Part shown: positions 4,161-17,139 of the stretch, piece after piece | How the letters are laid out: the number at the start of each line of letters is the position of its first letter | Numbering within the stretch: the first letter of the stretch is position 1 | Origin: a virus | Taxonomy: Duplodnaviria; Heunggongvirae; Uroviricota; Caudoviricetes | Direction: 5' to 3' (one strand) | DNA length: 22,255 nucleotides | IMG/VR virus record: IMGVR_UViG_2648501165_000011 | Made by a program: the position numbers and the translations under genes | Notes under the pieces: generated by a model | Told to the model about the DNA's origin: nothing | Databases searched by the model: none | The model's input: the letters and a program-made list of their open reading frames with translations, nothing else

Positions 4161-4437
4161 GGTTGTTGTCCTCGTTGTTCAGTCGTTGCAGCCTGCGCTG
4201 TTCCAGTAATTCAATGGCCCGTTTATCCGCGTTACAGGTTTCCAGTGCATCCAGAAGGCGGTCGCCCCATATACCGAGATTTCCCCATGTGGGAGTATCA
4301 GGGAAGGGGGGAGGTATTACCGGCATGGTCAGCGTCTGCGGTATAAGCCGGACTGACGGCGCTGACCGTGGCGCGTTCTGCGTGCCTGCGCAACCTGTCA
4401 GTAAAACGAGCGTCAGGCAAAGCGTGGGCGCATTCAT
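4147..4437 (-). CDS. lysC: Rz1-like outer-membrane spanin lipoprotein (LysC-like), embedded out of frame in the LysB gene
   Basis: ORF 4147..4467; from internal Met at 4437 the product begins MNAPTLCLTLVLLTGCAG, a lipoprotein signal with LTGC lipobox. Proline-rich body and embedding in the Rz-like gene are typical of Rz1/LysC. Confidence 0.7.
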   Translation of the reverse strand: MNAPTLCLTLVLLTGCAGTQNAPRSAPSVRLIPQTLTMPVIPPPFPDTPTWGNLGIWGDRLLDALETCNADKRAIELLEQRRLQRLNNEDNNHAEN

Positions 4438-4705
4438 CTTTTGCAATATCGTTGCGTAGCTGTTCACGTCTGGCCTCTCCGTCCTGATTTCGCTGTTGAT
4501 TTTCCACGCGAAGTTGCGCCAGCACCTGCTGCATATCCTGTACCCCGGCGCTGATGATATTCAGGGTGTCGACTGTACTTTTCAGGGTGCTGGCCTGTGC
4601 TTCGTTTCTGGCGTTCTCCTGGCCAAGCGACCATGACAGACGCATGGATGTTCCCCATCCGGCAATCAGAAGGAAAGCGACGCCAAGCGTTGGCCAGAGC
4701 TTCAT
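4298..4705 (-). CDS. lysB: Rz-like inner-membrane spanin (LysB-like)
   Basis: ORF 4298..4849; plausible start ATG 4705 (MKLWPTLGVAFLLIAGW...) gives an N-terminal TM helix followed by a charged, coiled-coil-like periplasmic domain. ATG overlaps the endolysin stop (ATGA). Confidence 0.7.
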   Translation of the reverse strand: MKLWPTLGVAFLLIAGWGTSMRLSWSLGQENARNEAQASTLKSTVDTLNIISAGVQDMQQVLAQLRVENQQRNQDGEARREQLRNDIAKDECAHALPDARFTDRLRRHAERATVSAVSPAYTADADHAGNTSPLP

Positions 4706-11923: not shown

Positions 11924-11950
11924 CGCGCTTCGCTTGTCTGCTGCTTCGCC

Positions 11951-11973
11951 GGGGCATAAAAAATTTATGCCCC
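11951..11973. terminator. Perfect stem-loop GGGGCATAAA-aaa-TTTATGCCCC just after the Q stop (no T-tract)
   Basis: 10-bp perfect inverted repeat read directly from the sequence; no flanking U-run, so it may be a packaging/cos-associated or RNA-stability structure rather than an intrinsic terminator. Confidence 0.4.
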
Positions 11974-12250
11974 GACTCTCCAGCTCCTGTATCAGTCAGA
12001 TAATTTCACGACGCCTTCCAATTTATCGCCACCATCGACGGTCAGACTCTTACGCAATCCCACCGCGTTGACTGCATGTTCTCGCCGCCTCAGTGCGATT
12101 TTGACGGCCTTACCTTTCACCCCATCAAATCAGAATCCCTCACGTATTTTTCACGCTCAGCGTGAGAAATACGGCCATTCTGTCGTGTCGCTGCGACATT
12201 GTTAAGGGAACGCTATTTACCCCCTGAAACGCGGGCTGTTCCCCCGTCAC
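11974..12250. other. Expected location of cos (packaging) site; exact cohesive-end sequence not identified
   Basis: In P2 the cos site lies just beyond the 3' end of Q. I could not match the remembered P2 cohesive-end sequence, so this is positional inference only. Confidence 0.25.
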
Positions 12251-12277
12251 CTGCGCGCAGAAAAAGCGCGTTTTTTT
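12251..12277 (+). terminator. Intrinsic-terminator-like element: short GC stem (CGCGC-agaaaaa-GCGCG) followed by T7
   Basis: Read directly from the sequence; would stop plus-strand read-through from P-Q. The stem is short (5 bp), so confidence is moderate. Confidence 0.45.
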
Positions 12278-12348
12278 GTGCATGCACGGATCCTTGACGG
12301 ATCCAGCCGCCACGGGGGCCGGAAGGGCAAAAAGTCGTTCAAAAAAAT

Positions 12349-12375
12349 TGTGCAAATTTGTGCACTATTGTGCAG
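12349..12375. repeat. Three direct repeats of TTGTGCA at exact 10-bp phasing
   Basis: attgtgcaaa / tttgtgcact / attgtgcagc at 12349, 12359 and 12369; helical-turn phasing suggests a protein-binding array. Confidence 0.5.
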
Positions 12376-12401
12376 CAGGGCGATGCGCGATTATCGCCCT
12401 G
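12376..12401. repeat. Palindrome CAGGGCGAT-N8-ATCGCCCTG just downstream of the Ea22-like gene stop
   Basis: Perfect 9-bp arms; shares its core (CAGGGCG/CGCCCTG) with the palindrome at 12977..12994 on the other side of the gene. Confidence 0.5.
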
Positions 12402-12414
12402 GTTTGAGAGGAAA

Positions 12415-12939
12415 TCAGGTGTTCTTTTTACCTTCTGTCAGTGGGCATAACCATCCACTATTTACATCACTTAGCTGATGCGTTCTTTCCTCGTGCTTCT
12501 CCTGCCACAATGCTTTTCCGCCAGCCTTTATGATGGCTCTTTCAACATCCCGCTCGTATCGCAAGGGCTGAAATACGTTATTAATGAAATATTCGCTTAT
12601 GTCCGGAAGCAATACTGCAAAATTATTGGTTTGTTGCGCCGTTCGGCTATGCAGCAAAGCGGCATACTTTAATGCGTCCTGTGCTTTCTGGAATTTCAGT
12701 GCATGCTCAGTGGCGATTTTTTCCAGTTCAGCGATCCTGTTGTCTTTGGTTTCCAGCTCTTCCAGCAGCTCGGCGATAATGTCCATTTCCTGATGACGGA
12801 TTTGACGCTTAAACGCCGCCACTGCTTCGCTACAATCCTGCTCAGCATTTGGGTTATCCGTGGTGGCCTCATACCACGCCAGCGTCGATTGATAGTTTTG
12901 TGCCGCCTCACGTAATGCCTGATAGTTGATTTCGCTCAT
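12415..12939 (-). CDS. Ead/Ea22-like family protein (unknown function), accessory cargo gene
   Basis: 174-aa ORF with AAGGAGA RBS 7 nt before ATG 12939. N-terminus MSEINYQALREAAQ... and coiled-coil segment ELLEELETKDNRIAELEKIA resemble the Ead/Ea22-like proteins of E. coli prophages as I remember them; C-terminal half has no recognisable motif. Confidence 0.5.
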   Translation of the reverse strand: MSEINYQALREAAQNYQSTLAWYEATTDNPNAEQDCSEAVAAFKRQIRHQEMDIIAELLEELETKDNRIAELEKIATEHALKFQKAQDALKYAALLHSRTAQQTNNFAVLLPDISEYFINNVFQPLRYERDVERAIIKAGGKALWQEKHEERTHQLSDVNSGWLCPLTEGKKNT

Positions 12940-12976
12940 TATGTCGTTCTCCTTGTTTATGTTCTGAGGTGGAGAG

Positions 12977-12994
12977 CAGGGCGAACCCGCCCTG
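12977..12994. repeat. Perfect hairpin CAGGGCG-aacc-CGCCCTG between parR stop and the Ea22-like start
   Basis: 7-bp perfect stem read from sequence; no T-tract on either side. Confidence 0.5.
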
Positions 12995-13002
12995 ACGTTG
13001 TG

Positions 13003-13314
13003 TTATTCAGGAAATAACGCCCGGATATTTCCGGCCATCTGACTGGTTATCTGTGCGGTTGGTGCTGGCTGTGACACGGGGCGTTCTGTCCTGGTTTGTG
13101 TCAGGGATAACGCTTCATCGTCAGCCCATGCAGCCAGTCGGTAAGCCTCTGCCGGATTAATTTTCATAAGTGCCAGTCCGGCCAGAAAAGCCACACGTTG
13201 ACCACTTTTGCGGGCTTCTGGTGTAAGGCTGTCCAGCCAGGCGCATGCTTCGCCTTCGTTCTTGACGGCGGCGGGCTTCAGATAGAAACTTATCCGTCTG
13301 GTTGGTGTCGTCAT
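13003..13314 (-). CDS. parR: ParR/StbB-like centromere-binding adaptor (ribbon-helix-helix), type II partition
   Basis: ORF 13003..13449; from ATG 13314 the product MTTPTRRISFYLKPAAVKNEGEACAWLDSLTPEARKSGQRVAFLAGLALMK...NIRALFPE parallels plasmid R1 ParR as remembered (RRTIAFKLNPDVNQ...LDSIPQGERSRLNRAALTAGLALYR...ILRSLFPKE). Immediately downstream of parM. Confidence 0.7.
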   Translation of the reverse strand: MTTPTRRISFYLKPAAVKNEGEACAWLDSLTPEARKSGQRVAFLAGLALMKINPAEAYRLAAWADDEALSLTQTRTERPVSQPAPTAQITSQMAGNIRALFPE

Positions 13315-13318
13315 TGGT

Positions 13319-14278
13319 TTACTCCTTGTCCATTGCGTACAGCCCATTAACCAGAGCAAACTGTGGCACCCCGTCCGCGATGAAAGTCGCATTAACTCCG
13401 CAGGCTTCGCGGATAGCGGGTGCCACAATCTCCGCCCCGCCACCGACAACCATCACCCGCCCGTAACCCGAAAAACCCGCCAGCGCGCGGATCACGCGTT
13501 GTTTCAGTGTTTCTTCCTTTTCACGAATAACCGCCATCAGGCTGTCGTAATGCGCGTCATTGTGGATGTGCTGGCGCAGCCAGGCTTCATTATGGCGATG
13601 TTCGATAATGGTATTGGCGATGTGGTGACTGGTACGCATACCGTTAGTGGCCATCACCGACAGTACGGCATCGGCCATCAGGGAAACGCCTACGTGTGGA
13701 TCGCAAAACACCTGGCTGATACCTGCCAGTTGTCCCTGAACCTTTGCCACATCCAGCGTGGTTCCGCCTAAATCCACAATCAGCAGGGATTCAAACGGAC
13801 TCATGTCAGCCAGTGCTTTAAAACCAGCCGGAATGGATTCAGGCATAACCCGTACGTTACGGATAGTGAATGCTTTTCCGTTCTGGTACGCCACCGGGCG
13901 CATGACGTTTGCTTTTTTGCGGTTGATGTTGGCCATGTCCGGCTGTGCGTTTGTGTCGAAATATTCGCTCAGTGGCAGGGTGACAACCACATCCACTTCC
14001 TGTGGTGTGATGCCTGATTTGACCAGCGCGTGATGAATGGCAATGACATTCACATCGCTGTACTGGTATTGCGTGTCGGTCGTCTGGACAAAGCGATCGC
14101 TGACCGGATCAAAACCATAGCGCACGCCATCAAGCATGTAGTTCGCGGGCTGCGTGCCACCGAACGGCGCAGACCATTCCGACTTGAAGCTGTTCGGGCT
14201 GATGGCGTTGCGGCGTTCGCCGTTCTCAGTCCATGCCAGCTTGATGTTGGTGGAGCCGTCATCGATACAAATTTTCAT
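13319..14278 (-). CDS. parM: ParM/StbA-like actin-type segregation ATPase
   Basis: 319 aa; MKICIDDGSTNIKLAW, ISPNSFK, YQYSDVNVIAIHHAL, VMPESIPAG, LIVDLGGTTLD, SGYGRVMVVGGGAE, LVNGLY track plasmid R1 ParM almost motif for motif (actin-fold phosphate-1, connect and adenosine motifs). AAGGAAAA RBS before ATG 14278. Confidence 0.85.
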   Translation of the reverse strand: MKICIDDGSTNIKLAWTENGERRNAISPNSFKSEWSAPFGGTQPANYMLDGVRYGFDPVSDRFVQTTDTQYQYSDVNVIAIHHALVKSGITPQEVDVVVTLPLSEYFDTNAQPDMANINRKKANVMRPVAYQNGKAFTIRNVRVMPESIPAGFKALADMSPFESLLIVDLGGTTLDVAKVQGQLAGISQVFCDPHVGVSLMADAVLSVMATNGMRTSHHIANTIIEHRHNEAWLRQHIHNDAHYDSLMAVIREKEETLKQRVIRALAGFSGYGRVMVVGGGAEIVAPAIREACGVNATFIADGVPQFALVNGLYAMDKE

Positions 14279-14304
14279 GTCGCTTTTCCTTATGTTGATT
14301 AATT

Positions 14305-14420
14305 AATCGTTTACGGGATTCTGAAATCCCGTTTTTGCCTGTTTTATGCGCGCTTCATATATCGCGGCGCGTTTTTTGCTCATTTACGGGATTTGTGAAT
14401 CCCGTTTCTGTCTGTTTTTT
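14305..14420. promoter_or_regulatory. parC-like centromere/operator: two 20-bp palindromes ACGGGATT-N4-AATCCCGT 73 bp apart (centre to centre), each followed by a conserved TTT(T/C)TG(C/T)CTGTTTT tail, flanking an AT-rich promoter-like core
   Basis: Sites at 14313..14332 and 14386..14405 read directly; position immediately upstream of parM matches the parC-parM-parR organisation of type II partition loci. Confidence 0.55.
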
Positions 14421-14794
14421 GTTTCCACTGGTCAGGCCACCCCGCAGCAGGTCTGCTTTGCGGCGGGCGCGTTCAGTGGTTTCACTGATTCTCTGTGCGT
14501 GCTCTGCGTCGCGGATGGCGCGCAGCATGTCAGAAAGCACGGTAACGGGTGTTTTCATGGTGTTCTGGTCTTGCTGAAGTGTGGATGCCAGGCGTGCGGC
14601 GGCTTCGGGGTCTGATGCCCCCAGCTGTTCCAGATAGCTGGCGACCGGGTTATGGCGGATCTCCGTGCTGCTTACGCCGTGGTTACGGCTCAGGCGCTGC
14701 CAGAGCTGCGTGATTCGGCTGTCCGGGCGGGTATCCGGTTTGCGTACAATTTCAAATCCCTGCGGTGCAATGATGCTGCCGTCAACGTACAGGC
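14355..14794 (-). CDS. ORF of unknown function whose 5' end lies in the assembly gap (could be a separate gene or the frame-shifted C-terminus of gpA)
   Basis: Open frame reads from the N-run to a stop at 14355. Translated segment (...EIVRKPDTRPDSRITQLWQRLSRNHGVSSTEIRHNPVASYLEQLGASDPEAAARLA...) is protein-like, but its C-terminal 20 codons run through the parC palindrome, so its true extent is uncertain. Confidence 0.3.
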
Positions 14795-14828
14795 NNNNNN
14801 NNNNNNNNNNNNNNNNNNNNNNNNNNNN
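14795..14828. other. Run of 34 N (assembly or scaffold gap of unknown true length)
   Basis: Directly visible in the sequence. Confidence 0.99.
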
Positions 14829-17139
14829 ATTCTTTAGCGAGTAATTCGTGGTTATCAGGCAAAGGCCGCTGCTGTTTGCGGCTCTGTGTCCAGCTCTGCA
14901 TTTCATCACTGCTGTTTTTTGCCTGTTTGTCACGAAGCGAACGCATCAGCGCCCGGCGTTCGTGCCGTTTCAGTGAGCGCATCCATTCGTTCACTTCAAC
15001 GCCGTCAGGGAGCTGCGGCCACGGTGCTGGCCGTTCTTCCGGCTGTTCTGTCCCGTTGTTGTCCGTTTCCTGTACACGGGGACAGTTATTGCCACGAGTC
15101 CAAGGGGCGGCAGGGCCGCCCTGAAGGTCAAAACCATTTTCGCGGGCGCTGTCTTCCGTTTCCGGTTTACGTCTTACCAGTTTCCAGTTATCCGGATGCG
15201 TGCACACACGGGAGGATTCCCCGATGAGTGGTGACCAGATCCCGTAAATCTGTACGCTCTGTTCGCCGTAATCATTCAGCTCATCTGCGAGGTCGTAGGC
15301 GGTGCGAATCAGGTAGTCTTTGCGTGGAACAAGTACGCCGCCCTGTTTTTCAATGTAGGTGGCAAAACACCCGGCATCGGCGGCAGCGAGTACCGCATCC
15401 ATTGCGTCATCTTTCAGTCGTTGCGGGCCTTCCGGGTTGCGTGCCATCTGGCTGGCAAGGCGGCGCAGTTCACGCCACACCTGACGGGAGGGGATGCCAA
15501 AGAACTGGAACTGGCGGACCCGATGAAGGCGCGCCCAGCCGATGGCGCGCTCCACACTCTCGACCATTGATTTTCCGGTTTCGTGGTCAACGCGTGGCTT
15601 GCCCGTTTTCGGGTCGATGCCATCCACGGCGCGGCTGTCCAGGTTCTTTCCGATGTAGGTCGCGATATAGCTGGTTGGTGTGCCTTTTGAGCCGTCGACA
15701 TACTCCGCCTTAAAGCGCGGAGTAATATCATTGCCCAGCTCGTGGCGGTCTTCCTGAATGGCAATATCGCGGGTGATGGCCACGATGCTGTCGATTTCTT
15801 CCGGATGAGCAAAGACCATCATATGCCAGTGCACGGTGCCGTCATGGTGAGGCTCCACCGTGCGGATGCCATACCAGCGAAGACCGTCGCGGTTCAGTTT
15901 TTTGCGGACCGCCGCAAAAAACGTGTTAACCAGGTAATCACTGGAGTCGCGCATGGTGGACCCGTTCCATTTGGGGTTCGGATGACCGTTCTCTGTTGTG
16001 GCGTGGTATTTTGACGGGCAGGTGACAGTCAGAAACACCGCTTTGTCGCCACGGGCTTCGGCCAGAAGTTCCAGCCCCTTCATGGTGGCCATCATTTCTG
16101 CCTTACGGTGAACCGGGTTACTTACTCCCGCGTAATACACCGTCTCGAGATCAAACGTGAACCCGTCTTCATTTTCCAGCATGAAACTTTTCAGGAAATC
16201 GCGTGTTTTCTCGCGCTGTGCGCGAAACTCGCTTAACGCGTCCTGGCTCAGATAGGGCGATGTTTTTCTGGAAACCAGACAGGCGGCGCGGAGTTGTTCT
16301 TCTCTCCACTCGCAACGTAACAGCCACAGTTTGCGTTTCCACCATTCTGCACAGGTCAGGCGAAGGATTGCGCCCGGCAGCAGCTCCGTGTCCGGTTCGT
16401 TCCTCCGGTCTTTGTCTGTTGTCAGTGCGTCATAATGTGGAGGCATGGCGTGCAGGTGTAACGCCATGCGGGCCAGCATCTGATACGCCTTCAGCGTTAC
16501 ATCCATGGTCAGTTCGCCATCGGTCGCGCCAAAGCCATCGCAGAGTTTTTCGAAGGTGCTGCTGAACATCGCCGCCGTCATGGTGGCCAGTGTCTGTATC
16601 TGGTGTTTGTTGAGCTGCGGCAGGTAAAGCAAATCGTCCAAGCGTTCGCGTCCGGCAAGGGAGCGATAACCCTGTGTCAGCCAGCGGTGATCGGTGCGCT
16701 CCAGACGTTCGAATATTTTGCGCAGGTTTCCGCGCGCGTAGCGTTCAGCCTGCCAGCTCTTTTTGCCTTTCTGACGATCGGCTTCCTGTTTTTTGCGCAG
16801 GAAGGAGAGGTGGCGAATAAGCGGATCGCGCAGATAGGACGGCAGCAGGCGCAGCGAGGCCATGGCTTCATCCACCGCGCCGCGTGCCTGTTTTCTGGCA
16901 TCTCCTGCCAGTGTGATGGTTTTGTCCTGTTTTTCCTGTGCGTCCAGGCTTTTATTAATCAGGTTGCCCAGCGGCGTTGCGGAGAACGCCGCATCAGCCA
17001 TTTCCTGGCGGTGCTCGTTCTCTACCCGGTAGGCATCCAGCCAGGAGGAAAGCGCGGATTCAGGAGCGGGGATCCCCGTTCCTTCACGCCCCACTGCGTG
17101 GCGCGGTTGTTGCCAGTCCCTGATGTACTCTGCCGTCAT
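14829..17139 (-). CDS. A: Replication initiation endonuclease (P2 gpA-like, HUH rolling-circle nickase); 3' end interrupted by the N-gap
   Basis: About 770 aa before the gap; HUH-type motif EPHHDGTVHWHMMVF and Tyr-rich active-site region GTPTSYIATYIGKN, typical of P2 gpA-family proteins; ATG 17139. Confidence 0.85.

Follow-up and report, generated by a model that had tools for sequence, protein, structure and literature searches.

The replication protein of phage P2, gpA (NP_046795.1, 761 aa), is an HUH rolling-circle initiator that nicks the origin of replication inside its own gene. The P2 record marks this origin with a rep_origin feature ('nick site at ori') at position 29892, which corresponds to codon 620 of A. 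P88 (NC_026014, Xuanwuvirus), which encodes its own version of this protein (YP_009113059.1), is an inducible P2-like coliphage (PMC5285337).

We studied a stretch of 22,255 bases (in the following, the window), which on the evidence of its alignments is a P88-like prophage of the P2 family (Xuanwuvirus). A 1.1-kb query around the gap in its gene A matched Chuche, P88 and other Escherichia phages at 96-99%, and of 5426 complete E. coli genomes, 1579 carry prophages that it also matches. Over its full length, the window can be aligned with complete E. coli chromosomes at ~97%; the alignment consists of two pieces, which are split at the gap only. This gap is a single run of 34 N, and a reading of the whole window revealed no further N among its 22255 bases. 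The N-run very probably corresponds to no biological feature and would represent an ordinary sized scaffold gap within a normal P88-type gene A. The run, the parts of gene A and the neighbouring genes are located as follows:

14795..14828, no strand: run of 34 N, read as a scaffold gap of estimated length; inferred content 72 bases, plus strand, TGCCGCCCCGTAACAGGTGCTGCATCTGCTGTTCACCGATATGCAGGCCGAGAGATTCGGCAGATTCCCGCC
14355..17139, minus strand: gene A, predicted P2-family replication initiator endonuclease; after repair one ORF of 2823 nt and 940 aa, with the gap in codons 771-795
14829..17139, minus strand: 5' part of gene A, up to the gap; codons 1-770 and one further base, with Phage_GPA (residues 179-503), HWH and Y491/Y495
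14355..14794, minus strand: 3' part of gene A, beyond the gap; two bases followed by 145 codons and a stop codon, residues 796-940, C-terminal tail of gpA
15082..15119, minus strand: putative ori nick block within A, homologous to the P2 nick region, with the position of the P2 nick near 15101
13319..14278, minus strand: ParM actin-like protein (Pfam), left of the gap
Left of the gap, in the ParM/StbB partition module: Plasmid_stab_B (StbB/ParR-type) protein (Pfam)

The initial annotation had reported an assembly gap of 34 N, and our count agrees with it. The span given for this gap, 14782-14933, does include the N-run but is wider, as it is in fact the overlap of two mechanical minus-strand ORFs (14782..17139 and 14355..14933). 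The gap had also been placed at the 3' end of replication gene A. It does lie within A, but at ~82% of the length of the gene and 440 nt before the stop codon at 14355..14357. Its position next to the partition locus was described correctly, since a ParM/StbB module identified by Pfam lies alongside. So was the loss of the true junction, as 34 N are written where relatives have 72 bases. The amount of missing sequence, in contrast, had been given as unknown: the N count is indeed wrong, but the true amount can be inferred as 72 bases, 38 more than the count.

The coding sequence around the gap identifies the gene. The 770-aa N-terminal part of gpA that is encoded by the window itself scores 435 bits against Phage_GPA (PF05840), compared with a gathering cut-off of 31.4, and residues 179-503 cover the full profile (1-321). 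BLASTP aligns this gpA with that of P2 at 30% identity (E = 2e-80). In the alignment, the HUH-type motif HHDGTVHWHMM is paired with HHDGTPHWHMM of P2, and SYIATYIGKN, which contains Y491 and Y495, is paired with GYIAKYISKN (P2 Y450 and Y454). Given what is known of P2 gpA, this motif and the aligned tyrosine pair are the predicted catalytic residues. The gap stretch aligns with P2 gpA residues ~711-734, which indicates that A continues across the gap, and the alignment runs on to residue ~800 of the P88-type protein. A conserved DNA block is found at the P2 nick position (GCGGC..GCCGC.CCT.GGA.TC.TG.CAATAACTGT); it is intact and lies ~255-290 nt from the gap. All of these elements, namely the Phage_GPA domain, the HWH motif, Y491/Y495 and the homologue of the ori nick, are thus located outside the gap. 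We also considered that the gap might have removed the replication origin and rejected this idea, since the P2-nick-homologous block at 15082..15119 is intact, ~270 nt away.

As written, gene A does not read through. Upstream of the gap one base of an incomplete codon is left and downstream of it two, so that 1 + 34 + 2 = 37 bases have to be translated; the frame slips, and a stop is reached 13 bases past the gap (14782). As its length of 34 is not divisible by 3, the N-run introduces an artificial frameshift, and this frameshift creates two overlapping ORFs of 785 codons (14782..17139) and, in another frame, 192 codons (14355..14933), both of which read through the Ns. An exact-protein look-up of the 785-aa product, which contains X, found no entry. 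With a 72-base fill, the sum becomes 1 + 72 + 2 = 75 bases, i.e. 25 codons, and internal stops are absent. The ORF, which is interrupted in the sequence as written, is restored to a single ORF of family length (940 aa) by the 72 bases of a flank-identical viral contig, L029 (IMGVR_UViG_2645727680_000003, IMG/VR). The residues at the gap then read W-RESAESLGLHIGEQQMQHLLRGG-S and occupy codons 771-795 of 940, of which 23 are missing fully and two partly.

This length is the usual one among relatives, in which A is one gene of 927-946 aa, with 940 aa in all but three. The 'replication endonuclease' is annotated with 940 aa in P88 and in E. coli TUM13770. Eight further assemblies, read from the 1036 blocks that an exact look-up of the widespread large terminase returned and all free of N, have 940 aa in five cases, 927 aa once and 946 aa twice. 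The comparison of gpA length with close homologues, which the initial annotation had proposed, hence places the repaired A at the common length of its family. The repaired protein is identical to the TUM13770 protein at 923 of 941 positions and to the P88 protein at 912 of 941.

The size of the fill is taken from the relatives, which show a constant spacing at this site. P88 and TUM13770 have 72 ordinary coding bases between the flanks of the window, and the same spacing was found in Salmonella enterica s1, in E. albertii NBRC 107761 and in a contig labelled Vagococcus sp.; these last three loci were retrieved from genome contigs with a 25-base left flank, and none of them is identical to the window or contains N. 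We fetched 84 loci with the left anchor; in 82 of them the distance between the anchors is exactly 72 bases, and the remaining two lack just the exact right-hand anchor word. N occurs in none of the 84. A query made of the two 150-base flanks (334 bases including the N) was also compared with complete E. coli records, ~1356 of which contained both flanks joined. We sampled 60 rows evenly down the ranking. Both flanks were matched in 59 rows, and in 56 of these the full 334-base query spanned 372 bases, an excess of 38. Two of the 59 spanned 373 bases (a 73-base gap), and one started at base 2 of the query. The sixtieth row was a divergent A allele with one flank matched. The two flanks are joined within the joining distance of the search in all but at most 16 of the 1372 E. 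coli records, and the one of these that is listed is a divergent A allele.

The best fill is provided by L029. It shows 100.000% identity with the window along 1319 bases left of the gap (13476..14794) and 983 bases right of it (14829..15811), and it carries 72 bases between these 2302 identical bases. The flanks of the window end exactly where the 72-mer of the relatives starts and finishes. Directly beside the gap, the G at 14793 differs from most relatives, a synonymous change of AGT to AGC. A flank search of viral contigs found this G in 71 IMG/VR loci, among them L029, and all of these continue with the same 72-base stretch and are free of N. The G is therefore a natural allele and not a contig-end error.

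The 72 bases themselves are inconspicuous. Words of at least 12 bases shared with the rest of the repaired window were sought on either strand, and none was found; the GC content is 61%, compared with 54% for the window. The 72-mer is thus neither a repeat nor compositionally extreme. A collapsed repeat was rejected as the content of the gap, since no 12-base word of the 72-mer recurs in the rest of the window. In the initial annotation, the gap had been suspected to hide a repeat, a collapsed duplication or more of the cargo region; this suspicion is unsupported, as the relatives have 72 unique coding bases here. Judged from these relatives, it is likely that no cargo, repeat or duplication is concealed.

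Could the 34 N nevertheless reflect a real property of this prophage? If the run were a length-preserving mask or a correctly sized gap, it would stand for 34 real bases, and a 38-base deletion would shift the frame of A, leave a gpA of 785 aa and make the element a replication-defective cryptic prophage. Masked stretches that read as N do occur in some sequence collections, and the stop at 14782, only 13 bases past the gap, is what the frame yields as written. Such a deletion is, however, absent from 82 loci and from ~1356 E. coli records, and L029, which is 100% identical over 2302 flanking bases, has the full 72 bases. The 145 codons downstream are moreover still open and 97-100% conserved, and the flanks stop at the edges of the relatives' 72-mer, which fits the ends of contigs rather than the end points of a deletion. 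We consider this deletion very unlikely. An N count chosen arbitrarily could also cover a larger item within A that short reads failed to assemble, for example a tandem duplication, an IS element or additional cargo. Repeats often cause assembly breaks, and the 72-mer itself gives no cause for a break. Conventional N placeholders are 10, 50 or 100 bases long; 34 is none of these, and such an unconventional count suggests an estimate from paired-read distances, which would imply a short gap. The insertion would furthermore inactivate an essential replication gene, it was seen in none of the 84 fetched loci, and the E. coli records without joined flanks number no more than 16 of 1372. A large hidden item thus appears extremely improbable.

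The identity of the ORF beyond the gap (14355..14794, or 14355..14933 as written) was the other question raised initially, with two options: an independent gene, or an out-of-frame continuation of A. An independent gene downstream of a shorter A would agree with the length of P2 gpA, which has merely 761 aa and can be aligned with the P88-type protein only up to about residue 800, and with the fact that the last ~140 residues are an extension that belongs to no Pfam family. The annotations of relatives and eight independent gene calls, on the other hand, have one product of 927-946 aa, and the gap region itself aligns with P2 gpA 711-734. The only in-frame start, a GTG at 14933, lies upstream of the gap and within the coding sequence of A. 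No Pfam family of their own was found for the 145 far-side residues, and their PHROG matches are to gpA C-termini only: in phrog_6857 they correspond to the final 145 positions (3e-82), and in phrog_91 ('nicking at origin of replication', 852 positions) to positions 747-852 (1.4e-11). The stretch is open in just one frame, and its 145 codons are 97-100% conserved. By these matches, the far-side ORF is the C-terminal tail of gpA and no separate gene; the chance that it is independent is close to nil. The second option was the right one, with the qualification that the continuation is out of frame merely through the 34 N. The end of A, which had seemed uncertain near the gap, is at the stop codon at 14355, and the ORF is uninterrupted once the gap is filled. 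The extension (residues ~801-940, window 14355-14780) is absent from P2 gpA, and its DNA abuts, and partly encodes, a repeat beside the partition module.

In the explanation that we favour, and to which we assign a very high probability, a sized scaffold gap hides 72 ordinary coding bases, with nothing biological at the site. During draft assembly, a scaffolder would have joined two contigs, both of which ended inside gene A of a P88-like prophage, with an N-run of estimated length. In the real genome, the gap would be occupied by 72 ordinary coding bases for gpA residues ~771-795, and the frameshift due to the 34 N would make one 940-aa gene look like a 785-aa 'A' and an overlapping 192-aa ORF. 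What we observed directly is that the flanks are identical, that the relatives have a spacing of 72 bases and that the ORF is restored. The presence of the 72 bases in the source genome is almost certain in view of these relatives, and we infer that it was the scaffolder that set the N count.

Why the assembly broke at this point may be explained by additional copies of this stretch. It occurs at 1533 places in 1372 E. coli records, and roughly a ninth of the carrier genomes have at least two copies. Interference with assembly by a related prophage in the same genome is consequently a plausible cause of the break. Some of the related loci (L081, L078) are 99.2-99.5% identical to the window to the right of the gap and 96.5% identical to its left, and this drop (window ~14455-14830) points to a mosaic (recombination) junction in the 3' part of A, near the gap. 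A real lesion in A might in principle have caused the break, which we regard as very unlikely; it could be the 38-base deletion or, at a recombination junction, a rearrangement or a short insertion. In that case, the prophage would be replication-defective and yet retain an intact ParM/StbB partition module.

The region left of the gap has peculiarities of its own. Between the portal gene and parM/stbB, the cargo slot (11924-13320) varies widely among otherwise near-identical prophages (L007-L014); examples of its content are ClpX-type zinc-finger proteins, DUF4760 and unnamed ORFs of 458, 280 and 263 aa. Such variability is usual for this 'moron' slot in these phages. Two direct repeats of 42 nt each (14307-14348 and 14380-14421) are 81% identical and 73 nt apart. 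One of them is found in the 76-nt spacer, directly before the start of parM, and the other within the last ~40 codons of A, and each contains the palindrome ACGGGATT-N4-AATCCCGT. Where two palindromes are present in related loci, their spacing is exactly 73 (20 of 20 loci), and among the loci listed the arms are kept while the 4-nt centre varies. The paired repeats are a candidate parC centromere, or a candidate operator, for the StbB/ParR-type protein. A separate observation concerns L005 (NZ_JBQPOM010000071.1), a 226-kb SOAPdenovo contig of 'Vagococcus sp. WN89Y', in which positions 4330-4560 carry a near-identical enterobacterial P88-type gene A within a genome labelled as a Firmicute. This Vagococcus assembly is probably contaminated or mislabelled.

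For the annotation of this locus, our results mean that neither a truncated gene A with an extra ORF should be recorded here nor hidden cargo be searched for. Closure in silico is possible with high confidence and would yield a normal 940-aa P88-type replication endonuclease. N-runs of a length that is not a multiple of 3 can in this way generate false frameshifts and false overlapping ORFs.

Compared with P2, the gpA of the window shares the Phage_GPA domain, the HUH motif and the aligned tyrosines, and within the coding sequence it appears to share the DNA block that is conserved where the ori of P2 is nicked. It differs by its 30% identity and by its length, as the P88-type protein has 179 additional aa, most of which belong to a C-terminal extension (~140 aa) without a P2 counterpart. 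The surroundings are also different, since A is followed by orf91, tin and old in P2, and by the ParM partition module in the window. The gap itself resembles a sized scaffold gap of a draft short-read assembly in all points: a lone N-run, flanks that are collinear with complete relatives, a count of 34 instead of 72, and a frameshift in an otherwise intact gene. We see no difference from this type of gap, although the assignment is a best fit rather than something documented. A close described relative of the gene is the A of P88, which has the same length as the filled A of the window (2823 nt, 940 aa), is identical to it at the 912 of 941 positions given above, and is set between the same neighbours: a 121-aa ORF precedes it, and ParM and the StbB-type partition protein follow downstream. 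The copy in the window is distinguished from that of P88 by ~3% amino-acid differences and by the assembly gap.
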